This document shows positions 7,346 to 55,937 of a stretch of DNA of 55,937 nt, one piece after another. Below the pieces are notes generated by a model. It was not told where the DNA came from and made no database searches. It was given only the letters and a program-made list of their open reading frames with translations. Source of the stretch: a virus; IMG/VR virus record IMGVR_UViG_3300046115_000049, positions 1 to 55,937 of that record; one strand, 5' to 3'. Positions within the stretch are counted from its first letter, which is position 1, and each line of letters begins with the position of its first letter. A program made the position numbers and the translations under genes.

Positions 7346-7613
7346 TCGCGAACTCGCCGTCATCATCGCTGAGGCAGAGGAGGAGCGCAAGGCCATCAAT
7401 GCTGAGATTAAGTCCGCCATGATCGAGGCGGGTGCCGAGTCGATCAAGTCGGAAGAGGATGACTGGTGTGCCGTTCGCGCAGAGGGGCACGGACCAGCTA
7501 AGATTAGTCCGGAGCTGCTCCTCAAGAACGGCGTCTCGATGAAGGTGATCGAGCGCTCGACCGAGCCGGGCGGCACATACGAGTACGTTCAGGTCCGCAA
7601 GTTAACGAGTTAA
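7107..7613 (+). CDS. Hypothetical coiled-coil protein; the start is uncertain (ATG 7107, or GTG 7179 / 7191)
   Basis: The C-terminal two-thirds (KSERAVAKAKADRDREYESK...ELAVIIAEAEEERKAINAEIKSAMIEAG...) have good coding character. The N-terminal part overlaps ORF 6539-7345. Confidence 0.55.
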   Translation: MSPQPLKKSVKPSPSSPTSAKSSPVHGVVKSTSAQPSAKSERAVAKAKADRDREYESKSVPVEEFPELVEAGIPELAVRSRELAVIIAEAEEERKAINAEIKSAMIEAGAESIKSEEDDWCAVRAEGHGPAKISPELLLKNGVSMKVIERSTEPGGTYEYVQVRKLTS

Positions 7614-7624
7614 CCGAGGATACC

Positions 7625-9126: not shown

Positions 9127-9128
9127 GG

Positions 9129-9743
9129 CTACGACGCCTTGAATAAGACGGTGAACGCGATATTCCAATCGTCGGTAGCGGCGGAGAAGGCACTACCGTT
9201 AGGGTGAGTGATGGTAATAAACGTGCCGCTCGCAGCTACCTGACAGACACCATCGATGGTGAGCGCGGTAGTGGATGTCTGGCCGACTAGGCACGCGTCG
9301 GCGACGGCCTCCTGCGCGGTGAGGGAATTGGGCAACGTGATACGTAGCTCATTGGGTGGACCAGCGGTAGTCGTATTGTTGAGTTTAACCGTCCAGTACA
9401 GCGTATCGCCGACCATGCGGTACGAGTCGGTTGCCACGTCGCCCGAGGCGACTGTCCACGAGCCGGTATCCGCGGTGAAATTACCCGCCACGAATGCACG
9501 AGTCTGCGTCGCCCCCATCGCGAATCCGCGACTACGCTCCGAAATCGTGGATGACGACGCGATCAGACCAGACCTGATGCCGCCAGTGCACGTCGACGAG
9601 GTAACTGCGCACCCTACCTTTAGTGATTCCGAGCTGGTGGAGATGGTATTGACGGTCGAGAATACGCCCGGTCGCTGCTGCGCGAACAGCACAGCGACAG
9701 CGGCGAATACGAACACGATAGCGAGTAGCGTCGTCTTACGCAT
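9129..9743 (-). CDS. Predicted secreted protein (Sec signal peptide), beta-rich
   Basis: The N-terminus is MRKTTLLAIVFVFAAVAVLFA|QQ. The rest is Thr/Ser/Gly rich. The gene lies between the tail fibre and the endolysin. Confidence 0.55.
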   Translation of the reverse strand: MRKTTLLAIVFVFAAVAVLFAQQRPGVFSTVNTISTSSESLKVGCAVTSSTCTGGIRSGLIASSSTISERSRGFAMGATQTRAFVAGNFTADTGSWTVASGDVATDSYRMVGDTLYWTVKLNNTTTAGPPNELRITLPNSLTAQEAVADACLVGQTSTTALTIDGVCQVAASGTFITITHPNGSAFSAATDDWNIAFTVLFKAS

Positions 9744-13349: not shown

Positions 13350-13456
13350 GCTGCCGTCCTCACGGATAAGAACAACAGTATCGCGTTTGCCAGCTGGAGT
13401 GCGCTGTATCGGTTGGGTTGTTTCTCCGCCAGCGGCCCCCTCGGGCTCGGTGGCGG

Positions 13457-15775
13457 CTACCGTTTTGGGAGTTCGACCTTACTCCCATCTGGCTTGATAA
13501 TACGGATACCTCTTGCGTCCGCGCCCATGTACTCACGAGCGCGCTTCATCGCGGCGTTCATGTCGTCGAACGTACCAACTACGCGGGTCGGGGATACAGC
13601 GAAGTCGATTTCTACGCCGAACTTACCTGTCGTCTTGCCGGATTTCGCGGTCAGCTGATCGGCGGCGGTCGCCTTCTTACCGCTACCCGACAATCCTTCC
13701 ACCAACCCGCCGCTAAACGTATCCGTCAGTTGTGATCCTACCACACTGACCTTATATCCATTGCCCTCCAACGCCTCAACCGCCGATTTCACGTCACGAA
13801 TACTGGCGTCTGACAGAATGCCGCTTACCTCACGACCATCCGCCGCCTTGAAGTGCAGGTCCGGTCCGAACTCGGTAACGCCCTCACCTACCTGAATCTG
13901 TACACTCTTGGGTCGAGTCTTCTCCCTGCCGGTGTTGATAGCGTCGTCCGGACTAACGTAGGTAATATTCGTCTTGCCGGGTCCCGGTACGCTACCCGCC
14001 TCGTTGTCGCTTCGCCGGATTCGCGCCGCTGCCGCTCTTACCGCCTCTTTCATCTCCTTCGTTACGTTCATACCCAATGTCTTCGAGATTCGCGACAGTT
14101 CGAATTCCGCCAGCGCCCCCTTATTGCGACGCAGTGCGTCGGCCATCCTCGCGAGTGCGCGAGACACCCCCACCTGCGAGGTTACCCCGGATGTAGCCGC
14201 AGCGTCAATAATCGGGAGAAGCACTACTCCAGCTATAGCCCCGGGCACGCCACCGTACGCTCCACCAGCGATGCCTCCAGCAATCGCCTCCACAGTGCGG
14301 CGTCCGGTAGCGGGTTGCACAGTTCGTGCCTCCTCAGCCGCGTCCATTACCGACTGCGCTGACCGGTACAGGTGGTATCTCGTATTGGCAGGTTTCAGAC
14401 TCGGGTGAACGCTGACTACCGCGTCTCGCAGCGCCTGTTCCGCCGCCGCCCATCCGTGTCCCTCACCGCGCAACGCGAGGTAGTCCGCAGCGGTCTGCGG
14501 CGTATAAACCTTCTTAGCGCCATCGCCCCACGCCATCGCCAAGTTACGGGCATCGACGGGATTCATGCGGTCGCCCTGATGGGTGATCTCGGCAAGCGCC
14601 GTATTCAGTGCCTTTATCCTCTCCGTCCGCATGGCTGGGGTGATGGTGACTTCCATCTCCTTCGCGAACGGTGCCTTCTCGCCCGTCTTTCCGGCAGGTA
14701 AGTCTACCACCCCCTCGTATTGCGCCTTAGGCTGCAGCCTCGCGATTTCCGCCTTGATCGCCGCCCTGATTGGCGCGAGCGGAATAGAGTTAGCTGGGGT
14801 GGCGGGAATCTCCTCGTACGCGCGGTTCAACTCCGTAACCGCCTCTTCGGCCTTGATGGTCACCTTCTCGTGTAACTGGGCACGGCTGGTCGCACCGAGA
14901 TCCGGATCGCGGAGTAGCGCGGGCGCGTCCTTCTTCGCCATGCGGCCGAACATGACCTTATCCTTGCCGGTAGTCGGGGCCATTACCTTCGCCATGCCCG
15001 TATTCGCCACACGGTCCATCGCGTTGGCGACCTTGGGGATGGCCGCAGCGCCCTTATGAACCGCGCCCACCGCGCTAGATGGCGATACCGACGTGGCGAG
15101 AAGTCCAACCGCTTCTCCTAGTCCCCCCGCCACGTCCCCCGATACGATCTTCTCCGCCGCTGCCGCTGCCGGGGGTCCAACCAACGGTGTTAGCGCTGCT
15201 GCTGCGTGCCCCGCCGCCCGCATTATTCCCGCATTCCGTCCCATCGACCCTTCCGGCTGCAGCATCGCTTCCTTATACAACCGCTGCGCCGTCGTCATCT
15301 CCCCTACCTGTGCCGCCCCCATTCGCACGGCCAGCTTAGTGCTCATTCGTGTTGCTGCCATTCCGGGCGTCCACAGATCCTTCATCCCCTCCGCGAACAA
15401 GTCCTTCATCAGGGGGATCGGGTTCATCGAGTTCACGATACCGCCGAGGAATCGCTTGATCGGTCCGGCCTGCTCCTCGGGCAGGTCGAGATCAATGTCG
15501 ATGTCCAGCGACGAGAGTGGGTCGTCCGGACCGGCTACCCCCGCCGTTCCCGCGCCTTGAGGGCGACCCGCACCGCTGCCGCCCCCACCTGCACCGGGAC
15601 CCGGGCCTCCCGTGCGTCCTCCCGGAATTGGGGTAACGCCGCTGGGGCCAGCGGGACCGGGAGCCGGTGGTACCTGCGAGGTGGGGGCGGTAGGGGCCTT
15701 AGGTGCGAATATCGGTCGCCCATTCGCGTCGTAACCTAGGAACTGACCCGGATCTTGAGAAGTGTCAATCGCCAC
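13457..15775 (-). CDS. Internal virion / ejection protein (Gly/Pro-rich N-terminus, Ala-rich hydrophobic core region)
   Basis: 772-aa ORF within the run of large genes downstream of the head-completion genes. No enzymatic motif was recognised. Confidence 0.5.
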   Translation of the reverse strand: MAIDTSQDPGQFLGYDANGRPIFAPKAPTAPTSQVPPAPGPAGPSGVTPIPGGRTGGPGPGAGGGGSGAGRPQGAGTAGVAGPDDPLSSLDIDIDLDLPEEQAGPIKRFLGGIVNSMNPIPLMKDLFAEGMKDLWTPGMAATRMSTKLAVRMGAAQVGEMTTAQRLYKEAMLQPEGSMGRNAGIMRAAGHAAAALTPLVGPPAAAAAEKIVSGDVAGGLGEAVGLLATSVSPSSAVGAVHKGAAAIPKVANAMDRVANTGMAKVMAPTTGKDKVMFGRMAKKDAPALLRDPDLGATSRAQLHEKVTIKAEEAVTELNRAYEEIPATPANSIPLAPIRAAIKAEIARLQPKAQYEGVVDLPAGKTGEKAPFAKEMEVTITPAMRTERIKALNTALAEITHQGDRMNPVDARNLAMAWGDGAKKVYTPQTAADYLALRGEGHGWAAAEQALRDAVVSVHPSLKPANTRYHLYRSAQSVMDAAEEARTVQPATGRRTVEAIAGGIAGGAYGGVPGAIAGVVLLPIIDAAATSGVTSQVGVSRALARMADALRRNKGALAEFELSRISKTLGMNVTKEMKEAVRAAAARIRRSDNEAGSVPGPGKTNITYVSPDDAINTGREKTRPKSVQIQVGEGVTEFGPDLHFKAADGREVSGILSDASIRDVKSAVEALEGNGYKVSVVGSQLTDTFSGGLVEGLSGSGKKATAADQLTAKSGKTTGKFGVEIDFAVSPTRVVGTFDDMNAAMKRAREYMGADARGIRIIKPDGSKVELPKR

Positions 15776-29103: not shown

Positions 29104-29874
29104 TTAGCTGAGGGTGCAGTTACGCGCCGAGACGATGTACCAGTTGCCGCCCGATGCGCGGACGGAAATCTGGTTACCGATCGCGGCAGTGAACGTGCAA
29201 AGGTCAGTGGCGGTCGAACCGGCATTGAAGCCGATGGTGGTCGCCGTGACCGTGTGTGCCTGTGCGGTGATGGCCGAGATGTCCAGCACCATGCCATCCT
29301 GCGCGGATGTCGGAGCCGCTAGCGTCATCGCAATCGCACCGCCCGACCCGAGCAAGTGCAGCCCGGGCATGACGGTGATTGCGCCCGACGCGGTGTAGGT
29401 CTGGGTCGGCCCCGGCAGCGGTGCCGAGAATCCGTTCAGCCTCCAACGGTTGACGCCCGCTGTCGTGCCCTTGCAATCGTATACGCTGCCAAACGCTGTT
29501 ACCGCAGGCAGCGCGACGAATGCAGTGGCCGTACACGGGCCGGGTGAAAGATCGGCGGGCAGGAAGTAATTCGCGGGTCCCGCGAACACCACCGCCCCCG
29601 ATGCGTGCAACCCGGCTCGAGATCCGTTCACGCCACGAGAGACGGTAATCGTCGTCCCCGAGACGGACTGGATCTGGAACATCTCCCCGTCCACGACGGC
29701 GAAGTAACCCGCCACGAACCCGGTCGCGGATGCGACCCTGAACGTGTTGGCACCTGTCGATGTGACTGCAGCTGCAAGCGTCGTCTGCGTGGTCGTGGAC
29801 TGCGTGCTCACCGGCACCGACATAGCGATGAGGGCAAGGAGAGCGATCGCGAAACGGGTAAAGATCTTCTTCAA
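29104..29874 (-). CDS. Predicted secreted protein with a phage fibre/decoration-type N-domain
   Basis: TTG start after gggggaga. The N-terminus is (M)KKIFTRFAIALLALIAMSVPVST|QS. It is followed by VASATGFVAGYFAVVDGEMFQIQSVSGTTITVSRGVNGSRAGLHASGAVV, matching the common phage E.m.v.sv.g.tltV.RG..gt.a..H motif. Confidence 0.55.
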   Translation of the reverse strand: MKKIFTRFAIALLALIAMSVPVSTQSTTTQTTLAAAVTSTGANTFRVASATGFVAGYFAVVDGEMFQIQSVSGTTITVSRGVNGSRAGLHASGAVVFAGPANYFLPADLSPGPCTATAFVALPAVTAFGSVYDCKGTTAGVNRWRLNGFSAPLPGPTQTYTASGAITVMPGLHLLGSGGAIAMTLAAPTSAQDGMVLDISAITAQAHTVTATTIGFNAGSTATDLCTFTAAIGNQISVRASGGNWYIVSARNCTLS

Positions 29875-29884
29875 TGTCTCCCCC

Positions 29885-31087
29885 CTACGCCGCCACGCGG
29901 CAAATGAGCTCGGGCCGGAGGAGACGGATTCCGTAGAATACGTCCAACCGACACGGCATGTTGTTTGTGTTGATGTCGTACTGGCGAATCATACGAATCG
30001 CGAGTCCCGACTGCTTGGACGACGCACGCCCGGCCATGTCGACGCCGCCCGGGAGCGGGAGATCGACAGAGGCGAACGCGATGGCGTCCGGGTGAAGTGC
30101 GAGACCCTGACGAGACACAGCACCGGTTGCGCCGAGCACGGTGATCGGCGCGTTGTCAGCCGGTGAGCCGCTGACGGTCTTCTGCTGCGGAACGATGACG
30201 ATCGACGGCGAGATCTTGATCGTCATAGCGCCAGCGGTGTCACTGATCAACTCGCGAACCACGAATCGCTGGAGCTGCTCCGTGTTCTCGCGGGACTGCA
30301 TGTTGATCTTGTACACGCCTGCCAAGGTGAATACATCGCCCTTGTTGAGAGTCGACGCACCCGAGCTCCATCCGTCCGTGATCAGTTCGTTGCCGATCTG
30401 GTTTGCGCCATTGACGAGCGGTGTACCAGCGTACACACCGTACGTGTGAGTCTTCAGGTTCTGACTCGTGTACCACGTGAAGCCAGCCGCCCTAGTGATA
30501 CGACCCTTGACGTACTGCTTCGAGATCTGTTCAGCATCCTCGGTCAGGCCGCGCAGACCGTTGACGATCTTTGCACCCATGTAGGGGGAGATGAACATAC
30601 CCCGACTGTCATCATCGGGAGCGGAGTTGTCATCGAGCGCAACGCCCGCCATGAGATACGTTTCCAGATCCGTGATGGGCGTGCCGGGAGTGCCGACGTG
30701 CTCATACACCTGATCGTAGATGGCCGCGATGTCCGAGTCGATCTTGTTGGCGATAGCGGCGACGGCAGGTGAAATGAATCGCTTGCTGAAGTCGTCGATC
30801 GACAGCACGAGATCGGCCTGCGAAAAGACGAGATCGACGCCAAACGGCACATCGATCGCGACAGACACCAACTCTTCCTGCGCATCCTCAGGCGAAAGAC
30901 CCCAACCCGAACGGCCGATGTAACGCGGCGGTTTGCGAACGTTGACTACCGCACCAGCCTTGGCCCCCTCGACCGCGAACTCCTTCGAGTATGCGCGGTT
31001 GGTGTGGCGGAGAAGAACGAGCTTGTTCTCCAGCACCTTGAGGGCTTCGCGCGTGATGATGGTAGATGTTAGAAGCGTGTTTGCCAT
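29885..31087 (-). CDS. Major capsid protein, P22-type coat (HK97 fold)
   Basis: 400 aa. The N-terminus is TREALKVLENKLVLLRHTNRAYSKEF and the C-terminus is RLDVFYGIRLLRPELICRV, both typical of P22-coat-family proteins. It sits directly after the scaffold gene. Confidence 0.8.
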   Translation of the reverse strand: MANTLLTSTIITREALKVLENKLVLLRHTNRAYSKEFAVEGAKAGAVVNVRKPPRYIGRSGWGLSPEDAQEELVSVAIDVPFGVDLVFSQADLVLSIDDFSKRFISPAVAAIANKIDSDIAAIYDQVYEHVGTPGTPITDLETYLMAGVALDDNSAPDDDSRGMFISPYMGAKIVNGLRGLTEDAEQISKQYVKGRITRAAGFTWYTSQNLKTHTYGVYAGTPLVNGANQIGNELITDGWSSGASTLNKGDVFTLAGVYKINMQSRENTEQLQRFVVRELISDTAGAMTIKISPSIVIVPQQKTVSGSPADNAPITVLGATGAVSRQGLALHPDAIAFASVDLPLPGGVDMAGRASSKQSGLAIRMIRQYDINTNNMPCRLDVFYGIRLLRPELICRVAA

Positions 31088-37840: not shown

Positions 37841-38131
37841 TTATTAAGATCGTATGATAATGTGGGCTTGCGTTGCGATAAAGTGAAAGAATGTGCGTTT
37901 GGCGGGTTATATATGGGGAGGTGGTATATGGACTATATACCCGGGGGGTATCCCTAGGTATAGGTCGGTCATTGTTTTTGCTAAGGGGGACTATCCATCG
38001 CGAGGACCGACCGCCGAATACCCAGATCTAGGAATGCGGCGAATGCAAGCCTCGTGCCCGCGATGGTTGGCACGCGTCTTGTTCGCCTCGATGGTGCGCC
38101 TTGCGCTTTCAAGATTCGTGCCAAGATCGGT

Positions 38132-38147
38132 TGGCATCACTCTTGCA
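38132..38147 (+). promoter_or_regulatory. Sigma54-type -24/-12 element (TGGCATcactcTTGCA)
   Basis: It has GG-N10-GC spacing with TGGCA and TTGCA flanks. The -24 half overlaps the palindrome TGCCAA-N6-TTGGCA (38119-38136). Confidence 0.45.
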
Positions 38148-38175
38148 GGGTTGGCCTTCGTGCGCCGGGGACTGC

Positions 38176-38191
38176 TGGCATCAGGCTTGCA
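38176..38191 (+). promoter_or_regulatory. Sigma54-type -24/-12 element (TGGCATcaggcTTGCA)
   Basis: A second copy 44 bp downstream. The two copies agree at 17 of 19 positions (tggcatcaNNcttgcagg). Confidence 0.45.
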
Positions 38192-38313
38192 GGCTGGCGT
38201 GGCGAATCGGCGCGACCCTGCAACCCTCGTGCCGCTCGTTTGTCTGCAATGCTCGTGCCGTGCGTTTTGCCCCTTTGGTCTTTGCCCTCGCTTTGCCCCT
38301 TGCCGGTCGCTCG

Positions 38314-38334
38314 GGTATGTCAGCCGCTTGACAC
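38314..38334. repeat. 21-bp direct repeat copy 1 (GGTATGTCAGCCGCTTGACAC) containing the dyad TGTCA-N6-TGACA
   Basis: Read directly. An identical copy lies exactly 100 bp downstream. Confidence 0.9.
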
Positions 38335-38413
38335 TGCGTGGCCGCTCGGCCACAGCGAAGCGACAGGCGAAAATCCCGCAAGGACGGGCATCGGCCGCTG
38401 GCACGAGCCTTGA

Positions 38414-38434
38414 GGTATGTCAGCCGCTTGACAC
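38414..38434. repeat. 21-bp direct repeat copy 2 (GGTATGTCAGCCGCTTGACAC)
   Basis: Identical to 38314-38334. Each copy is followed 64-75 bp later by GCCGCTGGCACG(A/G)GCC. Confidence 0.9.
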
Positions 38435-38473
38435 CCCCCTTCGGCGCAGGCCCGGACGACGGGATCGCGCCGC

Positions 38474-38489
38474 TGGCACGGGCCATGCA
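38474..38489 (+). promoter_or_regulatory. Sigma54-type -24/-12 element (TGGCACgggccATGCA) about 83 nt upstream of the first rightward gene
   Basis: It has GG-N10-GC spacing and a TGGCACG -24 box. Weaker copies with GT or GA at -12 lie at 38068-38083 and 38399-38414. Confidence 0.4.
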
Positions 38490-38571
38490 TTCTTGATCGG
38501 TGCCCCCGGCGCTGCGGCGCTCGGGGGTCCGGTCCGGATTCCCCGGATCGGTTCCTGATTGGTGGTCCCTG

Positions 38572-38904
38572 ATGACCTCGATTCCCGCGTCCGCTCTCCC
38601 GAAGCTGCCCGCTCTCCCGCGTCTCCCGCGCAAGCAGAAGGATCCGCGCCCGTGCGCGTGTGGCTGCGGCGCGCCCACCCGATCGACGTGGTTCCCCGGG
38701 CACGACGCGATCGCCCACGCTTGGGCGCTGCGCGTCGTCCGTGGCGCCAAGGGCGCGGACGGCAAGCCGATCACCGCTGCTCCTGCCCCGCTGACCGCCT
38801 GCGTGGCGAGGATCGCCGCGAAGATGCGCGAGGCGGCGAAGTCCGCCGCGCCGAAGTCCGCCCCTGTCGCGCCCGCGCCCGCGCCGGTCGCCAAGGTCGG
38901 CTGA
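38572..38904 (+). CDS. CxCGCG/PGHDA zinc-knuckle protein with Pro/Lys/Ala-rich tails (paralog 1)
   Basis: ATG at 38572 begins MTSIPASALPKLPALPRLPRKQKDPRPCACGCGAPTRSTWFPGHDAIAHAWALRVVRG, followed by an AAPKSAPVAPAPAPVAK tail. Confidence 0.6.
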   Translation: MTSIPASALPKLPALPRLPRKQKDPRPCACGCGAPTRSTWFPGHDAIAHAWALRVVRGAKGADGKPITAAPAPLTACVARIAAKMREAAKSAAPKSAPVAPAPAPVAKVG

Positions 38905-39149
38905 TCGCTCCGCCTCCCGGCCGGGATTGCCGCCCCCGGATCCCGGCCGGGTTCGCCTCTCGGGGGCTCCGTCGGCGGATGTGTGTCCGCCCTGATGAGG
39001 CCGACGAGGCCGAAACGGGACGAGGACTGCTCGACTGCCCGGGGCCGACAGATGAGCATAGAGGGACCGGGCACGCGACTATTCGCGCGGTTTCGGCCGA
39101 TGGCGGATGACCATCGACGAGCGACGAGCGACGAGGCGAGAGGAGAACG

Positions 39150-39209
39150 CGGAGCGTCAGACGTGCTGCGAGGCTTGCGGCCGAACACGCGGCCGTGCTC
39201 CGATTTTTT
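39150..39209 (+). terminator. Putative intrinsic terminator (compound GC hairpin followed by T6)
   Basis: The outer stem is cggagc/gctccg (39150-55 with 39197-202). The inner stem is cggccg/cggccg (39178-83 with 39190-95). TTTTTT follows at 39204-39209. Confidence 0.35.
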
Positions 39210-39280
39210 GCGCGCTTCCGGGCGCGGTGCCCGTCGAGACGCGCGGCTGGTGGGCGGCAGACGAGGAGGGAGACGTGGGT

Positions 39281-39598
39281 ATGCCACACGTTGGAGACGA
39301 TTCGATGACTGACATCACCATACTGTCCCATTCGAACGAGAAGATGGGCACGTTCGTGGCCGTGTACGCGGGCCACTTGACGCTGGATGACGCACTTGCC
39401 GCGTGGGGCGTCAAGAGACGAGCCGGGGTGGCGTATGAAGACGGCGAGTACTTGGACATCGCCACGCGCGCCGACAACTACACGGAGGCGGAGTGGGAGA
39501 GCGAGCTGACCTGCGCGATGCTTAACGGTCAGCCGCGATATGCGTTCGCTGTCTATGTGATTCACACGCAGATGGGGACGCCGGAGGAGGTAGCGTGA
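39281..39598 (+). CDS. Hypothetical protein
   Basis: ATG lies after gaggaggga. 105 aa. Only the part downstream of the T-run looks coding, so the ORF-track start at 39107 is rejected. Confidence 0.5.
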   Translation: MPHVGDDSMTDITILSHSNEKMGTFVAVYAGHLTLDDALAAWGVKRRAGVAYEDGEYLDIATRADNYTEAEWESELTCAMLNGQPRYAFAVYVIHTQMGTPEEVA

Positions 39599-39741
39599 TC
39601 GCACTAATCTTGGCAGGCGCAGGCGCGGTGGCGGCGGTCGTGTTCGCACGTCGCCACGCGGGGCTCGAATGGCACGAGATCAAGCACCTGACGTACATCG
39701 GCGTACTCGGGGCGACGATCCTCGTGCTGCTCATACTGTAG
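39595..39741 (+). CDS. 48-aa two-helix membrane peptide (not in the ORF track)
   Basis: The GTG start overlaps the upstream stop (GTGA), and ggaggagg lies 6 nt upstream. It encodes VIALILAGAGAVAAVVFARRHAGLEWHEIKHLTYIGVLGATILVLLIL. Confidence 0.5.
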   Translation: MIALILAGAGAVAAVVFARRHAGLEWHEIKHLTYIGVLGATILVLLIL

Positions 39742-39762
39742 ACCGGAAGGGGAGATACGACG

Positions 39763-40422
39763 ATGGCAGCAGTGATCTACGTGTCCATGAAGGACGAGAA
39801 GCGGACGCCGCCATTCGTGGTGGTGTTCGACGACCCGCGACAGGCGCGACACTGGAGGAGAGCGGCGGAGGCGCTGGACGAGCACGGCGCGTTCGAGTTC
39901 GACGAGCGTAGGTCGTCTTCGCCGCACACGGTGCTGGACTTCATCAAGGAGCAGCAGCAATGGCGTACCACTACAGCGACCCGGGCAAGGAAGACAACCC
40001 GTACGCACTACCGGACATCGAGGTATTCGAGGTGGTCGACGCCACACCATACGACGAATGTCCGGCGTGCCAGAGCGAGGAGACGGAGCGCGGTGTGTGG
40101 AAGCCGAACCACGACGACCATTGCCGCAAGCACACGGGTTGGTACTGGTGGATGTGCTCACCCGGCTACATGCCGAATGGGGAGGCGGATGGCCCCTTTT
40201 CATCTGAAGAGGCGGCGCTGGGAGCGGCGAGGGCGGACGCGGAATAGAACACGTTCGCCGTTTCACCGCGCTTTCGCTTGTGGCGGGGAATGCGCCCGTG
40301 GTTTAATCTGGGCGTGCCCCCCGCTCCGTCGCTCCGTCTCACGCGCGCTCGGGGGGCGCGCACGCGCGATTGAATTCGTGGAATGCTCGAGATTCGGAGG
40401 TGCAGAGTGCGAATGCGAATAG
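39763..40422 (+). CDS. Hypothetical protein; only the first ~66 codons look coding and the rest overlaps the next gene and a promoter
   Basis: MAAVIYVSMKDEKRTPPFVVVFDDPRQARHWRRAAEALDEHGAFEFDE... looks genuine. Beyond ~39960 the frame becomes Arg/Thr rich, and no stop occurs until 40422. Confidence 0.4.
   Translation: MAAVIYVSMKDEKRTPPFVVVFDDPRQARHWRRAAEALDEHGAFEFDERRSSSPHTVLDFIKEQQQWRTTTATRARKTTRTHYRTSRYSRWSTPHHTTNVRRARARRRSAVCGSRTTTTIAASTRVGTGGCAHPATCRMGRRMAPFHLKRRRWERRGRTRNRTRSPFHRAFACGGECARGLIWACPPLRRSVSRALGGRARAIEFVECSRFGGAECECE
39960..40247 (+). CDS. Hypothetical protein with a GWYWW.C.PG...GPF motif
   Basis: ATG lies 9 nt after aaggag. 95 aa. It contains ECPACQ...HTGWYWWMCSPGYMPNGEADGPFSSEEAALGAA. 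Confidence 0.6.
   Translation: MAYHYSDPGKEDNPYALPDIEVFEVVDATPYDECPACQSEETERGVWKPNHDDHCRKHTGWYWWMCSPGYMPNGEADGPFSSEEAALGAARADAE
40278..40307 (+). promoter_or_regulatory. Sigma70-type promoter with extended -10 (TTGTGG-N18-TTTAAT, TGg immediately upstream of the -10)
   Basis: gcTTGTGGcggggAATGCgcCCGTGGTTTAATctgg shares the AATGC..CCGTGGTTTAAT block with the element at 42566-42595. Confidence 0.5.
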
Positions 40423-40637
40423 CGGAAGCATGGAACCACTGCGAGAGGATCGCGGAGATGCACGCAGTAGGCGCGGCTGCTGATGCCGGGTTCGATGGCG
40501 GTGAATTCAGCGGTCCCGCACACCTGAGGGCAGAATCGCGACAGCTCGACACGACGGCGCGGGAGTACGGATTCCGCGACTACGAGGCGCTTAGGGACAG
40601 GGCGATCGATCTCGGCATCGTGAGATACGACTCATGA
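40407..40637 (+). CDS. Hypothetical protein
   Basis: GTG at 40407 lies 6 nt after ggagg. ATG 40383 has no SD. About 76 aa. Confidence 0.45.
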   Translation: MRMRIAEAWNHCERIAEMHAVGAAADAGFDGGEFSGPAHLRAESRQLDTTAREYGFRDYEALRDRAIDLGIVRYDS

Positions 40638-41125: not shown

Positions 41126-41258
41126 TCACCATCGAGCGCGGCAACACGTTCCAACTGAACCGCACCGGCACGCAGCTCGTCTGCGGGTACGGAGGATATC
41201 CGCAACGGTGATATCCCGGCTGAGTTCCGGATCGATGATATTTACATCTCGGAGGCAC

Positions 41259-47160: not shown

Positions 47161-47378
47161 GCAACTGGCGTGTAGCTAAGGGTGGCGCCCTACTCAACCT
47201 AGACGCAGTTGCTGTGATATTTCCGCAGCACGACGACAAGCGCGGGGATCTGGGTGAGTGGGTGATCGTATTCAACATGTGCGATGGTGACCAGATAGCC
47301 GAGAGGTACGACACCGAGGCGGAGCGGGACAAGAAGATGGCCGAAATGCGCCGTAATCTGCAGCCATCATTACCGTGA
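47157..47378 (+). CDS. Hypothetical protein
   Basis: ATGA overlap. 73 aa. Confidence 0.45.
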   Translation: MSNWRVAKGGALLNLDAVAVIFPQHDDKRGDLGEWVIVFNMCDGDQIAERYDTEAERDKKMAEMRRNLQPSLP

Positions 47379-49048
47379 TCACCCCGGCCGACTTGGAATT
47401 ACCTGATAAGTTCTCGGCCTACCGGAAGGGGCAGGGCGAGGCGGTAATCGACATCGCCGCAAGCGACAAGCGATTCACGCTCGTCTCTGCCCCAACCGGG
47501 TCGGGTAAGTCGATTACGTACGTGTCGGTTGCGCGAATACTGGGGGGCCGCACACTAATTGTGACCGGAACCAAGGGACTACAAGGTCAGCTGTTGGCCG
47601 ACTTCGCGCCTATCGGCATGAACGATATTCGCGGCATGAACAACTACAAGTGTATCGCGCTCGACCAAGGCGGTATGTTTTGGGGTAAGAACATGGGATC
47701 CCCGGGTACGATGTGCAACGACGCCCCCTGTCGGTCGGGGGTGGAATGTGATCACCGCGAAGGCGGCGGGTGCTTGTACTACGATGCACTGAAGGTGGCG
47801 AGGAAAGCCAAACTCGTAGTTACGAACTACCGATACTGGATGACGATGAACCGATACTCGGAGCCCGACTCACTGGGGCGGTTCGACCTGCTCATACTGG
47901 ATGAGGCGCACTCGGCTCCAGATGAATTGGCGGACTTCTGTAGCGTGCGGCTGGAAGAGGATGAGGTGCGTAGACTGATAAGTACGACGTTACCGCCGGT
48001 AGACGAGGGGGTGGACTCGTGGGTAGACTGGGCGAAACTGGCGCTGCGAGAATGCCGCATACGGCGATCGCAGGTCGAAGTAGCCATGCCGAAGACCGAC
48101 TACAAACGCGCACGCCTACTCAAGCGTTACACCGATCTCGAAAATAGTCTCGTCGTACTCGCCGCCGCGCATCAATGGCGACGAAGTGAGCCATCGATCC
48201 CCACGGTACGGATGCCGGGGATGCAGACCGACTGGGTGGCCGAAAAGACGCACAACGGGGTCGCATTCTCACCGGTATGGGCGCATCCGTACGCCGAGAG
48301 CTACTTGTTCAACAATATACAGAGAGTAGTACTGACCAGCGCGACGTTGCAACCGGCCGTAGGACGGTACTTGGGAATCGACTCGACGAAGAGCGAATTC
48401 AAGGAGTACGCATCGACATTCCTACCTACTAGACGTCCGCTGATTCACGTACCCACGACTAATGTGGATCGCCGCATGACGGACGGACAGGTGCGCGTGT
48501 GGATGAACCGAATAGACGCTATCATCACCGGGCGACCGAATTGGAAGGGAATAATCCACACCCGCAGCTATGAGCGGGCGCAGCATATCTACGCCACAAG
48601 TCGCCACCGTGGTATCATGATCGCGCACGGCCGCAGCAACGCACGTGAGGTAGTGGCGCGGTTCAAGGCGGCGAAGGCACCGTGCGTACTCGTATCGCCG
48701 GTCATGGAGGAAGGGTACGACTTCCCGTATGACGAATGCAGATACCAGATAATCGTGAAGGTACCGTTTGTGGACACGCGGTCGCTGATAACGCAGGCAC
48801 GAGCGGCAAGCGACAAGGGATACTTGAACTACTTAACGGCGCTGAGCCTGATTCAGATGGTCGGACGCGGGATGCGCGCGGAGGACGACTCATGCGAGAC
48901 GTTCATAATCGACGATCACTGGGACTGGTTTAGACCGGCAGCGGACAAGATGGGACTGTGGCCGCGATGGTTTAAGGCGTCGTTCAAGCGGCACCCGGGT
49001 GTGCCGAAAGCGATGATGGAGCGCGAGAACGCAGGAGGCGCGAACTAG
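47375..49048 (+). CDS. DinG/XPD(Rad3)-like superfamily-2 DNA helicase with a Cys-rich (Fe-S-type) insert
   Basis: 557 aa. Walker A is VSAPTGSGKS and the DEAH box is LILDEAHS. Five Cys lie between them (YKC..TMC..APC..VEC..GGC). The C-terminal SPVMEEGYDFPYDECRYQIIVKVPF is a helicase C_2-type block. Confidence 0.75.
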   Translation: MITPADLELPDKFSAYRKGQGEAVIDIAASDKRFTLVSAPTGSGKSITYVSVARILGGRTLIVTGTKGLQGQLLADFAPIGMNDIRGMNNYKCIALDQGGMFWGKNMGSPGTMCNDAPCRSGVECDHREGGGCLYYDALKVARKAKLVVTNYRYWMTMNRYSEPDSLGRFDLLILDEAHSAPDELADFCSVRLEEDEVRRLISTTLPPVDEGVDSWVDWAKLALRECRIRRSQVEVAMPKTDYKRARLLKRYTDLENSLVVLAAAHQWRRSEPSIPTVRMPGMQTDWVAEKTHNGVAFSPVWAHPYAESYLFNNIQRVVLTSATLQPAVGRYLGIDSTKSEFKEYASTFLPTRRPLIHVPTTNVDRRMTDGQVRVWMNRIDAIITGRPNWKGIIHTRSYERAQHIYATSRHRGIMIAHGRSNAREVVARFKAAKAPCVLVSPVMEEGYDFPYDECRYQIIVKVPFVDTRSLITQARAASDKGYLNYLTALSLIQMVGRGMRAEDDSCETFIIDDHWDWFRPAADKMGLWPRWFKASFKRHPGVPKAMMERENAGGAN

Positions 49049-49762: not shown

Positions 49763-49795
49763 TTCGGCGCAACTGAACCGAACCGGGGGTGGTGA

Positions 49796-50119
49796 GTGCG
49801 GGTTGACAGACGCGGGTTCCTATCCACAATAGTCGCGGCAACGGTGGTCACACCGCTTGCCCGATTCATACCCGCGCACATGCGGTACCGCCCGCCACCC
49901 TCCATCCCCTACCCCGTTTCCGGCATGAGTCTCCGCTTAGTGCGGGACTACGACATCGCCGCCGCTTCTCACGTTACCCGTATCGACATCTTCTACGGTA
50001 CTTCACTGCTTCGCCCCGAATTCGCATGTCGCGTTGTTCAGGGCGATCGTCAGGCGTTCCTCGGGCGACTCCGCGCCTACGTCCGAGATTTCACGTCGTC
50101 ACTCGATAGGCGCAATTAG
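49796..50119 (+). CDS. Mini-protein with a twin-arginine (Tat) signal-like N-terminus and a coat-protein C-terminus-like segment
   Basis: GTG start. The N-terminus is VRVDRRGFLSTIVAATVV. The segment SGMSLRLVRDYDIAAASHVTRIDIFYGTSLLRPEFACRVV aligns with the coat C-terminus SGLAIRMIRQYDINTNNMPCRLDVFYGIRLLRPELICRVA at roughly half identical positions. Confidence 0.55.
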   Translation: MRVDRRGFLSTIVAATVVTPLARFIPAHMRYRPPPSIPYPVSGMSLRLVRDYDIAAASHVTRIDIFYGTSLLRPEFACRVVQGDRQAFLGRLRAYVRDFTSSLDRRN

Positions 50120-50132
50120 GAGCACTACGCGT

Positions 50133-51077
50133 ATGGCACCAGTACAGACCCGAGGCAAGGCAGCCCCCGCGAAGGCATCCGGACCCGTCAACGCTGTCAG
50201 CATGAATCCCGATGACATGCTGCAGGGCGGACTAATGGATGACTTCGACGGGACCATCACCAAGGCTCGTTTCGTTCCGTGGGACTACAACGGCAGCATC
50301 GATCATCACATCCTCGCTGTCGCCGTGGAGATCACTCCTGACGAGGGTCAGGGCGATCCGTTCACCCAGCATTACTCGGCAGGCGATCTCGAGCACTTCG
50401 CACCATCGGTCGACGGCGTAGATCCCGTCGATCTGGAGTCATGGGATCCGAAGAAGGATGCCATCGACGCGGTAGAGGGCGAGTACGCCGTCCGTACCGG
50501 CCGCAAGGAGCAGATGAACAACAACACAAACTGGGCATCGTTCATCTCAGCTGGGCTGGATGCCGGGTTCGACAAGGCCGCTCTCTCCGCATCGGTGGCG
50601 TGCTTCGAAGATACGCACGGTCACTTCAACCGCGTACCGCAGAAGAAGCGGTCGGGGCTCGTGACGCAGGCGGCGGCAGATGGTCAGAAGGCGCGGTCCA
50701 ACGACATCCTCGTCCTGACCGAGATCAGCGAAGCAGCGAAGGGCGCGAAGAGCGCGAAGGGTAAGCCGAATGGCGCGGCCGGTCGCCCAGCGGCGGCGTC
50801 ACCGAAGGTCGGGGCGAAAGCGGCACCAGCAGCGGCGGCAGCGGGCGGCGATCTCGATGAGACGCTTTTCGCTCTCATCGCGGCGGCGATGACCGAGGCG
50901 GAGGGCGAACTTCCGAAGGCGAAGCTTGGCGCGATCGCGCTCAAGGGACTGACGGGCAAGGAGAAGGCGCTTGGCCTCAAGCGGGTACAGGACCCGGAAT
51001 TCCTGAACTCGGGCGGCGAGGACGGGACGCAGTGGATGTACGATGAGGAGAATGCGACGCTCCTAGCGGCGGAGTAG
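50133..51077 (+). CDS. Hypothetical protein (Lys/Ala-rich linker, acidic C-terminal tail; an SSB-like role is possible but unproven)
   Basis: ATG lies after aggagc. 314 aa. It ends ...QWMYDEENATLLAAE. Confidence 0.5.
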   Translation: MAPVQTRGKAAPAKASGPVNAVSMNPDDMLQGGLMDDFDGTITKARFVPWDYNGSIDHHILAVAVEITPDEGQGDPFTQHYSAGDLEHFAPSVDGVDPVDLESWDPKKDAIDAVEGEYAVRTGRKEQMNNNTNWASFISAGLDAGFDKAALSASVACFEDTHGHFNRVPQKKRSGLVTQAAADGQKARSNDILVLTEISEAAKGAKSAKGKPNGAAGRPAAASPKVGAKAAPAAAAAGGDLDETLFALIAAAMTEAEGELPKAKLGAIALKGLTGKEKALGLKRVQDPEFLNSGGEDGTQWMYDEENATLLAAE

Positions 51078-51203
51078 CCGAATCTAGAATTACCGATCCT
51101 GCAAGCGTCCTACATCCCAGTGGCGCTAAGAACCGTCGGTATGCGCAACCCGACTCTGGGAGCAGGCCAGAGTCGGAATTTACTGAACCGAACCGAGGAC
51201 CAT

Positions 51204-51470
51204 ATGGTGGGAGACAATTACGACCGGGGGCTACGACGCACGCATTTCAATTTCGATGAGACTACACGGCTTAGGTTGTTACCATCCAGCTGGCCTACGC
51301 GAGAAGAACTGGCGTACCTGAATTTCGGCTCCGTGGTGGCGACGGGGAGAGCGATACTGAATACGGCACCGTGCGTGCGGTCACTCGGGGACGCAAGCCG
51401 CGAACCGATGCAGCATGGGGATACGGGGTTCATACCTAGAGGGCACGAGGATAGTGATGGACGCAAATAG
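51204..51470 (+). CDS. Hypothetical protein
   Basis: ATG lies 7 nt after the CTGAACCGAACCGAGG motif. 88 aa. Confidence 0.4.
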   Translation: MVGDNYDRGLRRTHFNFDETTRLRLLPSSWPTREELAYLNFGSVVATGRAILNTAPCVRSLGDASREPMQHGDTGFIPRGHEDSDGRK

Positions 51471-51801
51471 ACGCGGGTTCCTCAAGGCACTAACAGCGAC
51501 GGCGGTCGCGATGACGGTGGACCCGGAGCGGCTGCTGTGGGTACCGGGGGCGAAGACCATATTCCTGCCACCCGTTAAGCCTGTATCAATAGTAGTAATA
51601 CAGGAAGGGGGCTTGTTCACTCCGGTTACGTTTCTCCCGGGGATCGTCATCCAGCTTAAGGCCATCGCGGGTCACTGGTACATCATAACTGATAAGGCGG
51701 CAAACGGTAAAATAGGCCTAGAGTCTATTCACGCCCCCGGGAAACTAGAAATATCGTCATCTCAGATGGGCAGGTTCGAGCGCGCCGGGAGGGCGTGGTA
51801 A
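51457..51801 (+). CDS. Mini-protein with a consensus Tat signal (RRGFLK)
   Basis: It begins MDANRRGFLKALTATAVAMTV, followed by DPERLLWVPGAKTIFLPP. 114 aa. Confidence 0.55.
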   Translation: MDANRRGFLKALTATAVAMTVDPERLLWVPGAKTIFLPPVKPVSIVVIQEGGLFTPVTFLPGIVIQLKAIAGHWYIITDKAANGKIGLESIHAPGKLEISSSQMGRFERAGRAW

Positions 51802-52041
51802 GTGGACCGCCGCAGGTTCCTAGGTGCGCTGGCGACGTTCGCGGTCGGCGCGGCACTGGACCCGGAGCTACTGGTCTGGAAGCCGGGTGCGAAGACGATA
51901 TTCCTACCATCAATAGTTGCGTTTTCTCAGTCCGACATGGATAAGGCTATCGCAGCAGTAGTAAAGGCACTAGCCGACGCTATCGATAGGGATATATACA
52001 GGCATTGGGCGTTGGCCGCAGCGGGGCAACGATGGAACTAG
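51802..52041 (+). CDS. Mini-protein with a Tat signal-like N-terminus, paralog of 51457-51801
   Basis: GTG falls directly after the upstream stop. It begins VDRRRFLGALATFAVGAAL, followed by DPELLVWKPGAKTIFLPS. 79 aa. Confidence 0.55.
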   Translation: MDRRRFLGALATFAVGAALDPELLVWKPGAKTIFLPSIVAFSQSDMDKAIAAVVKALADAIDRDIYRHWALAAAGQRWN

Positions 52042-52787
52042 TCCGCCAAGGAATTCACGAACTTCTTCCCATGAACCGGACTGGGGATGAGAATCGCCAT
52101 ATCTCCACCATCATACGGTCGTTGTGCTTGAAACTCGGCCACTTCGAGGACGAGGATAGTTCCTCGATGACCGACGATGCCAAGTCGGTACGTCAGACGC
52201 GATGGGAACTAGGGTCGGCATTCGAAGAGGCCGTCCGTCACGGGCTGGCCCGTCGCTATTCGCAGGACGAGCCCGACAAGTACATGGTCATCGGCGAACT
52301 TGAAGACGATGGACTTATTGGCTCACCAGATTTAGCCGACCTGACCGAACCGGCCGTTCACGAGATCAAGCTTACGTGGATGTCGAACCGGCGTGGCCCG
52401 GAGGACGAGAAGTTCTGGAAATATCTAGTCCAATTGAAGGCGTACGTGCGCATGTTCAAGCAGTCTCGCGTAGGGTATCTGCACGTGTGCTTCCTCAACG
52501 GAGATTACTCGTACCGCGGCGGCAATAGCGGTCCCGACTACCGTGTGTGGCGAGCCGAGTTTACGCAACAGGAGTTAGATGAGAATTGGCGCATGCTGCA
52601 AATCGAGGGGCGGCAGCTGCGAGAAGAGGCGAAACGTGGGAGTGATACGGCGAAGATGGAACAGCGAAATTCGTCACATGGACGCAGTAAGAATGCTGGC
52701 GTCTCTACCGGCATCATCGGTCGGCGCGGTGGTATCCGACCCGCCCTTCTTCGTGGGAATACGGCGGGACGAAGGCGGGGTAGGTAG
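52032..52787 (+). CDS. PD-(D/E)XK nuclease (YqaJ / lambda-exonuclease / Cas4-like fold)
   Basis: The motifs are GSPDLADL ... HEIKLTW ... QLKAYV (D...ExK...QxxxY). The 3' end overlaps the methyltransferase gene. Confidence 0.55.
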   Translation: MELVRQGIHELLPMNRTGDENRHISTIIRSLCLKLGHFEDEDSSSMTDDAKSVRQTRWELGSAFEEAVRHGLARRYSQDEPDKYMVIGELEDDGLIGSPDLADLTEPAVHEIKLTWMSNRRGPEDEKFWKYLVQLKAYVRMFKQSRVGYLHVCFLNGDYSYRGGNSGPDYRVWRAEFTQQELDENWRMLQIEGRQLREEAKRGSDTAKMEQRNSSHGRSKNAGVSTGIIGRRGGIRPALLRGNTAGRRRGR

Positions 52788-53424
52788 GGACCCATGGGCG
52801 CTAAAGGTAGGAGCGAATGGGGGTGGCGGGGTAATGGCGATGGCCGACTGGTACAGGCCGATAGCCGCGCAGGTCGCGCGGGTATTGCGTCCCGGTGGAG
52901 CGAGTATCGTCATGGGCGGGTCGCATTCGACAGCGGCGTGGGAGGTAGCAGTAGGGCGGTCGGGGCTACCGTGGATGGCCGAACTGACGGTACTGTGGAA
53001 CATGGGCAAGCCTCGCGTTCGCAATTTCGGGTCATTATCCATGCCGATTAAGTGGCATATCAAGCCGGGCGCGCGGCATACGTTCAACTCGGGCAGCGTT
53101 CGCTCGATCTACTCGAATGTGATCGTCGCTACCAAGGTTCCGGTGCACGACCGCGTTCATATCGCACAGAAACCCGTCGAGCTAACGAATTTTCTAATAA
53201 GTCTATTGACGGAGCGAGACGATCTGATCGTGGACCCGTTCTGTGGGAGCGGCTCGACCCTCGTCAGCGCAGCCATATGCGGGCGACCGTGGCTCGGATG
53301 TGACACAGATAAGACGCAGTGCGATATAGCCGCGACTCGCACGATGCGGCACGAATTGGAGGAAGCGGAATTGCGGCCGCTGCATCTGTGGGTAAACGGG
53401 CGACTACAGGAGGTATCGGCATGA
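52636..53424 (+). CDS. DNA methyltransferase, beta-class amino-MTase (N6-adenine or N4-cytosine); start uncertain (52579-52642)
   Basis: Motif IV (VVSDPPFF) precedes motif I (VDPFCGSGSTLV). The N-terminus EIRHMDAVRMLASLPASSV is typical of the family. Confidence 0.75.
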   Translation: MGVIRRRWNSEIRHMDAVRMLASLPASSVGAVVSDPPFFVGIRRDEGGVGRDPWALKVGANGGGGVMAMADWYRPIAAQVARVLRPGGASIVMGGSHSTAAWEVAVGRSGLPWMAELTVLWNMGKPRVRNFGSLSMPIKWHIKPGARHTFNSGSVRSIYSNVIVATKVPVHDRVHIAQKPVELTNFLISLLTERDDLIVDPFCGSGSTLVSAAICGRPWLGCDTDKTQCDIAATRTMRHELEEAELRPLHLWVNGRLQEVSA

Positions 53425-55022: not shown

Positions 55023-55937
55023 CGGCATCAACATTACGCTGTCGCCTGACGGCAGGTATGCGTCAGTCGGCAACGATCGTTCACAGCTCGTGGAGCTGGC
55101 GTACGATTCGACCGATATTCGCGTGATCGAGCACCGCGTCATCGGTGAATCCGCTCCCTCTCCTGTCCAATCGTATTTCGGTCAGTGGCTCGACAATCGG
55201 AAACTGGTATTCTATCAGGATGGCTATGACGGTATCCCCGGTAGACGCCGATTCCGCGTTTACGATACGATTACCGCTGGAGTTAGTGACCTGATGGTAG
55301 CGCCGGGAGTCGATCTACTCGCCGTCCGTGACAATCAGGTATTTGAGACGCACGTCGGTATGTATCGCCATGTAACATGTGAGAGATGGCAATTCTGGTG
55401 CAACCACGCGAACAATGTGCTGCACGCGCGGAGCCCAACCGGCGTAGACTATATGAAAGCGGTTACCGAGCAGCCGGGAATGGTAGATGGAATCCGTCAT
55501 CTCATCGCTGCCCCAGGCGGCAATGCGCTGTTCTTCGACGGCTACCATATCCAAGTGTGGCACCCGCAGACCGGCCTGAACAGGTCGGTGTCGATCGTCA
55601 CTCGCAGTGACCGATACCCGTGGGGCGAGGGGCTCGGATGGTGCTGGCGGCGACCCGCTGATGGGACCGCATGGCTGGCCACGTGGGTGACGGACCAGCC
55701 GTGGGGACGAACGTTCATACTCATCCGTCCTATGGGCGCGGGGCTGTGCATCTGGCAGGAGTTCGGAGGAGTAGATTGGCTGCACGCCGCGACGATGGAC
55801 CACGACCGGGTAGTAGTGGCCGGATCATACAACGCGGTGTCTTACGCCACAATAGTAGATACGCGTATGGGACTGGGGATATTCGCCCCGTCCACGCCTA
55901 GCTCCGGACCCGGACCCGGACCTGTGGAGCCGCCCCC
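55000..55937 (+). CDS. Wrap-around CDS (357 aa in total; continues as 1-263): beta-propeller-like protein with a 15-Pro tract and an amphipathic C-terminal tail
   Basis: ATG lies 5 nt after aggagg. I translated it by hand with no stop up to the window end, and the frame is continuous with ORF 6-263 after collapsing the 127-nt overlap. The N-terminus is MERLQIPNGINITLSPDGRY. It is absent from the ORF track because it has no stop inside the window. Confidence 0.75.
   Translation, partial: MERLQIPNGINITLSPDGRYASVGNDRSQLVELAYDSTDIRVIEHRVIGESAPSPVQSYFGQWLDNRKLVFYQDGYDGIPGRRRFRVYDTITAGVSDLMVAPGVDLLAVRDNQVFETHVGMYRHVTCERWQFWCNHANNVLHARSPTGVDYMKAVTEQPGMVDGIRHLIAAPGGNALFFDGYHIQVWHPQTGLNRSVSIVTRSDRYPWGEGLGWCWRRPADGTAWLATWVTDQPWGRTFILIRPMGAGLCIWQEFGGVDWLHAATMDHDRVVVAGSYNAVSYATIVDTRMGLGIFAPSTPSSGPGPGPVEPP
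55811..55937. repeat. Terminal direct repeat (second copy of nt 1-127)
   Basis: Identical sequence read at both window ends. Confidence 0.95.

Follow-up and report, generated by a model that had tools for sequence, protein, structure and literature searches.

What could a phage gain from small proteins in which a twin-arginine-type N-terminus stands in front of a piece of its own capsid? This question is raised by three short open reading frames (ORFs A, B and C) in the IMG/VR record IMGVR_UViG_3300046115_000049. The window analyzed here is the whole stretch of 55,937 nt, on which all positions are counted. An earlier note, made from the letters of this DNA, had pointed out the three ORFs, read their N-termini (VRVDRRGFLSTIVAATVV in ORF A, MDANRRGFLKALTATAVAM in ORF B and VDRRRFLGALATFAVGAAL in ORF C) as signals for the twin-arginine translocation (Tat) pathway, and reported a diverged copy of the coat protein's C-terminus in one of them. 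The positions of the ORFs and their N-termini were confirmed (Table 1). With high confidence, we conclude that A, B and C are predicted small proteins of a widespread, undescribed phage family that is built from a leader and a payload.

A conserved leader in front of variable C-termini

Near each N-terminus lies a twin-arginine motif, DRRGFLS in ORF A, NRRGFLK in ORF B and DRRRFLG in ORF C, followed by an uncharged run (11 residues after the K of RRGFLK in ORF B and, by eye, ~14 after RRR in ORF C and ~16 after RR in ORF A). ORFs B and C also share DPE(R/L)L(L/V)W(V/K)PGAKTIFLP, as the earlier note had seen. When ORF B was used as the query, the search returned 17 metagenomic proteins whose common part was only the first ~40 residues. 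A 43-position profile of the leader was then run against 1.84 billion cluster representatives and matched 3351 clusters at E ≤ 1e-3 and 1036 clusters at E ≤ 1e-10. Counted as clusters at 50% identity, the family has a size of at least 1036, and the leader is not a curiosity of one phage. ORF B is the best match of the leader profile (87 bits).

The best 150 matches of the profile are all 46 to 201 aa long with the leader at or near the N-terminus, and none is a fusion of the leader to a full-length coat protein, an arrangement we had considered. In the main subfamily the leader consists of xRRxFL, a stretch of 12 to 15 residues rich in A, G and L, and then DPERLLWVPGAKTIFLP, after which the C-termini vary. 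Among the 150 members the two R residues and the F, D, W and G never vary, and conservation reaches at least 90% at L, P, E, L, L, P, K, T, I and P. Mean column identity is 52% over the leader as opposed to 8-10% over whole proteins, and the sequence beyond the leader does not align. The stretch between RR and DPE is exactly 15 residues long in 143 of 207 members (family median 15) and is composed of 32% A, 22% L and 15% G; its sequence varies and its character does not. ORF A belongs to a short-leader subtype that has RRxFL and the hydrophobic stretch and lacks the DPERLLWVPGAKTIFLP motif, and the leader profile fits it only at positions 2-17 (E = 0.0047).

Between ORFs B and C, different codons are used at 7 of the 22 identical leader residues, which shows that conservation acts on the protein. 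Several other accounts of the leader were set aside. A DNA-level mobile cassette or recombination site is ruled out as the cause of the conservation by differences at synonymous sites between leader copies. A shufflon or invertible segment is a misfit, as the repeated part is the constant part and each copy has its own start. Resemblances to a RiPP-type leader, a translational arrest peptide or a TonB-box-like strand (KTIFLPP) were noticed by eye only and are unsupported.

The first half of the leader resembles known Tat signals. On TIGR01409, the NCBI Tat model with a cut-off of 16.7 bits, ORF B scores 22.6 bits, and four relatives (P0004, P0013, P0010 and P0057) also pass. On the Pfam model TAT_signal (PF10518), ORF B reaches 17.7 bits, below the gathering score of 22.7, and 32 of the 150 members match this model at E ≤ 0.01. 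Searched against PDB sequences, the leader profile matched mainly twin-arginine-type N-termini (PsbU, the NapA signal peptide 2pq4_B and a sulfide dehydrogenase subunit); these matches span leader positions 2-19 only, and the DPERLLWVPGAKTIFLP half matches nothing. The likeness to the Tat signal peptides of NapA, TorA and PsbU (TIGR01409/PF10518) thus consists of an N-terminal xRRxFL and a short, uncharged stretch rich in Ala and Gly. Unlike those signals, the leader continues at a fixed spacing into the invariant DPERLLWVPGAKTIFLP with no clear AxA, and its cargo is a presumably non-folding fragment of 20 to 150 aa instead of a cofactor-containing enzyme. Of 207 members, 199 do have a small-x-small pattern close to where the hydrophobic stretch ends, which is trivial in a sequence so rich in Ala and Gly. 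We infer, as a prediction, that the leader works as a Tat signal. Its Tat-like half is a known kind of element, and its invariant second half is new.

No model for the family was found in Pfam, PHROG, NCBIfam or PADLOC, and we found no description of it, nor any described function that would fit, in the literature searched, in agreement with the earlier note. ORFs B and C had no match in PHROG, and PADLOC found no match to its anti-phage defense and anti-defense models in ORFs A-C and three relatives. Among 50,697 GenBank phage records there was no leader member by tblastn and no close relative of the phage or of the region by blastn. The members known to us come from 18 IMG/VR loci with leader genes and from metagenome assemblies. 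Nothing was confirmed for the leader in GTDB, searched with one genome per species, and there is thus no evidence for prophages or for a named host.

Capsid-like payloads

The payload of ORF A aligns to the end of the coat protein encoded in the same window. The match covers ORF A residues 42-80 and coat residues 360-398 without a gap, with 20 of 39 positions identical (51%) and 28 of 39 similar (BLASTP, E = 9e-13), so that the earlier reading of about half identical positions holds as a significant alignment. Independent models agree: ORF A matches the Pfam family P22_CoatProtein (PF11651) with 25.0 bits at a cut-off of 24, over profile positions 382-421 of 423, and PHROG 283 (major head protein) with E = 2.3e-8. 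When ORF A was searched against all 462 stop-to-stop ORFs of the window, the coat was the only match (E = 3.5e-10). The coat itself is clearly of P22 type (P22_CoatProtein, E = 2.9e-42; PHROG 283, E = 4e-81), with P22 coat (2xyy/5uu5) and an isolated I-domain (6mnt, over residues 243-319) among its PDB relatives. A profile made from the C-terminal payloads of other phages matches ORF A with E = 8.7e-15. No homologue of ORF A other than itself was found among 5.8 billion proteins, and a gene identical to it is present in a second sample (L006).

The copy is not recent, as the earlier note had already argued from the diverged DNA. Nucleotide identity between ORF A and the coat gene is 51%, or 0.54, 0.74 and 0.26 at the first, second and third codon positions, and the codons differ at 12 of the 20 identical residues. 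Since third positions are at a random level and second positions are conserved, the ORF A payload is a duplicate of old date that has been retained through selection at the protein level.

ORF A is not the only one of the three with a capsid piece. Six spine-helix-type payloads from other phages were combined into a profile, which matches the window coat at residues 97-127 (E = 1.7e-8) and ORF C at residues 47-68 (E = 7.7e-6), with no other window ORF below E = 0.7, indicating that ORF C carries a piece of the coat spine helix. Compared with the coat directly, ORF C gives a weak match that aligns the same place (E = 0.079; hhalign E = 0.14). Profiles of the N-arm, I-domain and C-terminal payload classes match only the coat in the window and, for the C-terminal class, ORF A. 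The earlier note had assigned a coat piece to one of the three proteins; this stands for ORF A and must be widened to at least two of the three. In each case the coat-like part, 39 residues in ORF A and ~22 in ORF C, is a fragment without a complete HK97-type fold.

For the payload of ORF B there was no coat match, including against the N-arm, spine-helix, I-domain and C-terminal payload-class profiles. It does show a weak 16-residue similarity (E = 0.003-0.007) to the C-terminal part of the Ig-like gene at 29104-29874 (-), where ISVRASGGNWYIVSAR is weakly like IQLKAIAGHWYIITDK of ORF B. This gene lies directly after the coat gene, has an Ig-like segment and tail-fiber-type PHROG matches at aa 24-105, and is also kept after the coat gene in loci L011, L019 and L025. 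AlphaFold2 (101 sequences) modeled ORF B with helices at residues 5-20 and 23-28 (PERLLW) and the rest extended or of low confidence (pTM 0.26).

Capsid-like payloads recur throughout the family. A profile of nine P22-type coats matched 78 of 205 payloads (38%) at E ≤ 0.01, of which 54 had E ≤ 1e-5, and matched none of 1025 shuffled payload controls. When the window coat was compared by phmmer with 153 payloads stripped of their leaders, 58 matched at E ≤ 1, and the matches clustered on coat residues 2-56, 74-133, 231-315 and 328-399. By the known order of the HK97 fold they correspond, in turn, to the N-arm, the spine-helix region, a portion of the I-domain and the C-terminal strands; the third is assigned to the I-domain because of the span covered by 6mnt. 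The link to the capsid, which the earlier note had seen as one to the C-terminus, is therefore broader: the C-terminus holds for ORF A, and the family also draws on the N-arm, the spine helix and the I-domain. N-arm payloads are the commonest class (35 segments) and I-domain payloads the second. Recurring capsid motifs were evident on reading the 150 member sequences, and scans of the same 150 with Pfam and PHROG gave PHROG 283 15 times and single matches to the Phage_capsid_4, GP7 and SU10 capsid families and to a capsid-protease family, with one terminase match as the sole other phage structural family. Payloads are ~20-150 aa long, and all capsid matches among them are in frame and sense-oriented. 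Some combine pieces, as in P0013 (N-arm and C-terminus), or join them out of order, as in P0065 (C-terminus, then spine helix) and P0075 (spine helix, then the end of the N-arm).

Wherever a match was found and the contig also holds the capsid gene, the payload matches the capsid protein of the phage that carries it, a rule that holds across at least three capsid families without detectable mutual similarity and is not universal. The ORF A payload scores 48.5 bits against its own coat and 16.9 bits against the best of seven other P22-type coats, and both for ORF A and at L019 the own P22-type coat was the best of the eight compared. At L003, the payload of P0010 matches residues 167-248 of the phage's own Phage_capsid_4-type capsid protein with E = 8e-21, the core being ~70% identical by eye. 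A payload at L028 matches its own PHROG 14242 capsid protein (E = 1.2e-11), and an N-arm payload at L025 matches its own coat (E = 2.9e-8). At L007 the own coat ties with that of L016 (48.9 and 49.3 bits).

Leader genes also occur in small sets with different payloads. The window genome has exactly three. L025 likewise has three, with N-arm, I-domain and C-terminal payloads, and L004, L007 and L028 have two each. In L004, L025 and L028 a short-leader gene adjoins a full-leader gene (Table 1), and by eye these short-leader payloads are pieces of the C-terminal third of the capsid protein.

Possible function and alternatives

The mechanism that we favor, tentatively, is that the proteins are Tat-targeted capsid-mimic peptides that act as decoy ligands. 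Decoys were among the roles the earlier note had listed, together with exclusion factors, and of these the decoy is the leading reading here. The host Tat receptor would recognize the leader and the protein would go to or through the inner membrane. The payload, presumably unable to fold alone, would act as a linear mimic of one surface of the capsid protein, as expected of segments too short for independent folding, and would compete for whatever usually binds that surface. The likeliest target would be a factor hostile to the phage, for example a capsid-sensing immune protein of the host, or a satellite or rival phage that makes use of the capsid protein. Since Tat exports folded complexes, the leader may also take a bound partner along when the protein leaves the cytoplasm, which would explain the choice of Tat. 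In each genome, a panel of two or three genes would present different capsid pieces. That such export-tagged panels form a protein-level decoy set which occupies recognition sites, with the Tat leader removing the peptide and possibly the bound factor, is a further step that we regard as doubtful.

There is precedent for parts of this scheme. The Gol peptide of T4 gp23 activates Lit. Capsid proteins directly trigger bacterial immunity, and CapRel(SJ46) senses a major capsid protein (PMC9712102). These cases share the premise of the decoy reading, namely direct recognition by the host of capsid proteins or of short linear segments from them; they differ in that they are host sensors acting on full-length capsid proteins, and in that binding activates the sensor rather than blocking it. 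We know of no phage-encoded, export-tagged capsid piece. In Tat "hitchhiker" export, as for the small and large subunits of hydrogenases and for DmsAB, a signal-bearing protein co-exports a signal-less partner bound in the cytoplasm. This model would explain the use of Tat rather than Sec, and it serves here as an analogy only. No neighboring gene family apart from head genes is common to 24 loci, and no conserved partner gene was found beside the leader genes, which fits a host-encoded partner for the leader.

Other systems resemble the family in architecture. The internal proteins of T4 likewise have a conserved N-terminal tag, hypervariable cargo and fast-evolving, multi-copy small genes, and their capsid-targeting tag directs proteins into the prohead and is cut off by the prohead protease. 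The T4 tag, however, has no twin-arginine motif or hydrophobic stretch, and T4 cargo is not derived from the capsid. To our knowledge P22-type phages have no prohead protease, and no match to one was found among the window proteins scanned, which were part of the ORFs. Family 4 "A-domain" encapsulins also keep a capsid-type piece as an independent gene. They are truncated HK97-fold proteins that form a whole self-folding domain, lie in cellular operons and have no export leader, whereas the pieces described here are smaller than a domain, sometimes rearranged (P0065, P0075) and copied from the phage's own capsid gene.

A number of observations weigh against the decoy mechanism. ORF C scores only 13.3 bits on TIGR01409 and ORF A has no match to it. 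We found no clear AxA cleavage site, the acidic DPE after the hydrophobic stretch is unusual for Tat, and the mean Kyte-Doolittle value of that stretch (1.82) is as high as that of the Sec signals used for comparison. A structural or binding role is another possible reason for the fixed spacing and for the invariant 17-residue motif. About 60% of payloads, including that of ORF B, have no detected capsid origin, and at L011, L013, L016, L022 and L024 the phage's own coat gene is nearby and the payload does not match it. A mimic of its own capsid could poison the phage's own assembly, and no sensor of capsid proteins is known to us that resides in the periplasm or at the Tat translocon. Finally, the position of the gene in the head-assembly module of many relatives suits an assembly role as well as a decoy.

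An assembly role is the strongest competitor, and we judge it unlikely. Here the peptide would bind the phage's own coat, scaffolding or portal protein and replace or complement the corresponding segment, with the leader keeping the complex at the membrane or at the Tat receptor. In this way procapsid assembly would be nucleated, timed or checked, or linked to lysis. The leader gene lies between the terminase and portal genes at L017, L019 and L021 and just upstream of the terminase gene at L007, L016 and L026, as such a factor might. Sub-domain payloads could gain structure only by docking on a partner, the match to the own capsid protein fits, and the commonest payload class derives from the N-arm, which in P22 coat is the region that contacts the scaffolding protein. 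In the window and at L001, by contrast, the genes sit in a replication module far from the head genes. The earlier note had called the ORFs early, a label that can be inferred for the window from this setting and does not extend to the family, many members of which lie between terminase and portal. The leader is near-identical across three unrelated capsid families and so cannot be adapted to one particular capsid. The assembly of P22-type capsids has been studied in depth and proceeds without a factor of this kind, and the usual orientation of insertion would put the payload in the periplasm, away from the assembling capsid.

A periplasmic payload would suit an envelope-located function, either superinfection exclusion, for example by action on the ejection proteins of an incoming related phage, which evolved to contact the inner capsid surface, or lysis control through holin timing. 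We hold this to be quite unlikely. The Tat-type signal and, in the window, the early-type operon are consistent with it, and small size, fast evolution and multiple copies, typical traits of exclusion genes, are found here as well. Lambdoid phages keep lysis genes upstream of the terminase gene. A host defense system that blocks phage DNA entry acts in the periplasm (PMC13128918), which also counts for exclusion. On the other side, no holin or spanin gene is adjacent in the window, and the GH108 endolysin gene lies at 8539-9168. We know of no capsid protein that enters the periplasm, and the P22 I-domain, the source of the second commonest payload class, is on the outside of the capsid, not the inside.

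The leader might also act alone, by occupying or blocking the Tat receptor or through binding of its 17-residue motif to a periplasmic host protein, with the payload as a passenger acquired from nearby DNA. Conservation is indeed much higher in the leader than in the payload, the majority of payloads lack an identified origin as noted above, and frequent closeness to head genes could bias capture. This explanation is nonetheless improbable in our view. The payload is under purifying selection for capsid-like residues and is still matched by curated capsid profiles; the enrichment is specific to capsid proteins and does not extend to neighboring genes generally; the coat gene of the window is ~20 kb away on the other strand; and different genes of one genome carry different capsid pieces. 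Plain jamming of the Tat pathway, one of the roles proposed by the earlier note, explains neither selection on capsid-like residues nor the match of the payload to the own capsid. The RRxFL motif might also have a function other than export, as the same note had suggested. It is very improbable that the ORFs are non-functional debris, pieces of genes that recombination happened to leave in frame after a start codon. They are short, without known function and seen only in metagenomes, yet the invariant leader recurs in >1000 clusters, codons differ where residues are identical, the genes have ribosome-binding sites and show start-stop coupling, capsid matches are in frame and the shuffled controls gave 0 matches.

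Taken with the capsid mimicry that we tentatively favor, selected copies of the own capsid behind an export-type tag, in at least three capsid families, suggest that some factor in the infected cell recognizes linear segments of the capsid protein and that the phage benefits from providing more copies of them. The family is a large set of phage genes with a testable two-part design. The leader together with own-capsid copies in one small protein is a new combination, and DPERLLWVPGAKTIFLP adds a conserved element, likewise new, to a Tat-like signal. The partner could prove to be the Tat system, the assembly machinery, a hijacker or an immune sensor; in each case its identification would reveal a new side of the conflict between phage and host or between phages and would supply natural peptide ligands that mark functionally important capsid surfaces. 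If the reading as a panel of decoys is true, it would represent a new principle of counter-defense and a new viral use of the Tat pathway.

Coordinates, genomic setting and other observations

Table 1. Leader genes, their motifs and the matching coat segments. Positions are in the window unless another locus is named.
Feature	Position	Strand	Description
ORF A	49796..50119	+	107 aa; short Tat-type leader (VRVDRRGFLSTIVAATVVTPLA), Pro-rich linker, copy of coat C-terminus, 27-aa tail
ORF A payload	49919..50035	+	aa 42-80; diverged copy of coat residues 360-398
ORF B	51457..51801	+	114 aa; full leader (aa 1-39) and 75-aa payload
Family motif of ORF B	51520..51573	+	DPERLLWVPGAKTIFLPP; near-invariant in 150 family members
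ORF C	51802..52041	+	79 aa; full leader (aa 1-36) and 43-aa payload
Motif of ORF C leader	51859-51909	+	DPELLVWKPGAKTIFLP; family motif
ORF C payload core	51940..52005	+	aa 47-68, AIAAVVKALADAIDRDIYRHW; coat spine-helix-type piece
Major capsid (coat) gene	29885..31087	-	P22-type, 400 aa; source of copied pieces
Coat residues 360-398	29894-30010	-
Coat residues 97-127	30707-30799	-
Short-leader gene, L004	1976-2182		adjoins full-leader gene
Short-leader gene, L025	8508-8771	-	adjoins full-leader gene
Short-leader gene, L028	1092-1319		adjoins full-leader gene

The two ends of the window overlap exactly over 127 bp (1-127 and 55811-55937), which indicates a complete genome of ~55.8 kb that was circularly assembled or is terminally redundant. 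The head module is podovirus-like, with a P22-type coat, portal, scaffold and terminase. The closest relatives of the coat are in phages of Proteobacteria, and a Gram-negative host is likely on these sequence grounds. The leader genes sit on the plus strand within the replication module, flanked by a helicase gene (47375-49048) on one side and by a PD-(D/E)xK nuclease gene (52005-52787) and then a methyltransferase gene (52579-53424) on the other.

All three ORFs have recognizable start regions. ORF A starts with GTG right behind an in-frame TGA, with GGGGG 6 nt upstream. ORF B starts with ATG and has GAGGA upstream. ORF C starts with GTG at the base after the ORF B stop and has GGGAGGG upstream; given this abutment, ORFs B and C are probably translationally coupled. 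The products of ORFs A, B and C were all called by the JGI gene caller (P0001, P0002 and P0126, the last being ORF C), ORF B in a longer form of 128 aa.

A probable 88-aa gene lies at 51204-51470 (+), where it has GAGGA 6 nt upstream and overlaps the ORF B start by 14 nt; it has no family match. Upstream of it stands the 14-mer ACTGAACCGAACCG, which occurs exactly at 49772-49785 and 51182-51195 (+). Three more sites have 1-2 mismatches (0.42 expected), and the variants include those at 41154 and 46629. At three of the four plus-strand sites, the 14-mer has a Shine-Dalgarno-like GAGG/GGGG end a few bases ahead of a start codon.

Elsewhere in the window, ORFs at 270-1586, 3873-6533 and 7625-8281 (+) match the PHROG "2-aminooxy adenylosuccinate synthetase", which we take to be PurZ, a family-A DNA polymerase and a dATP triphosphohydrolase of DatZ type. 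This set suggests that the phage DNA contains 2-aminoadenine (a Z-genome). In the structural module, a 960-aa ORF at 10467-13349 (-) without a PHROG match has two internal twin-arginine-like motifs, SRRGFFSKLF and MTRRKFIQTAATAPTAVKAVLAM, the latter with a hydrophobic stretch rich in Ala and Pro behind it. The product may be an ejection protein that inserts into the membrane, or the true start may be the internal Met. The stretch at ~38000-40500 is the GC-richest of the window (67%) and has long overlapping ORFs on both strands, two of which were scanned without a family match.

Side features were also seen at two of the related loci. At L027, the large terminase gene (12277-15543) is interrupted by an intein with a LAGLIDADG domain, and a 214-aa protein with a generic Tat-like N-terminus is encoded at 7570-8211. 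L001 has an Acb2/Tad1-type anti-defense gene at 3709-3921.

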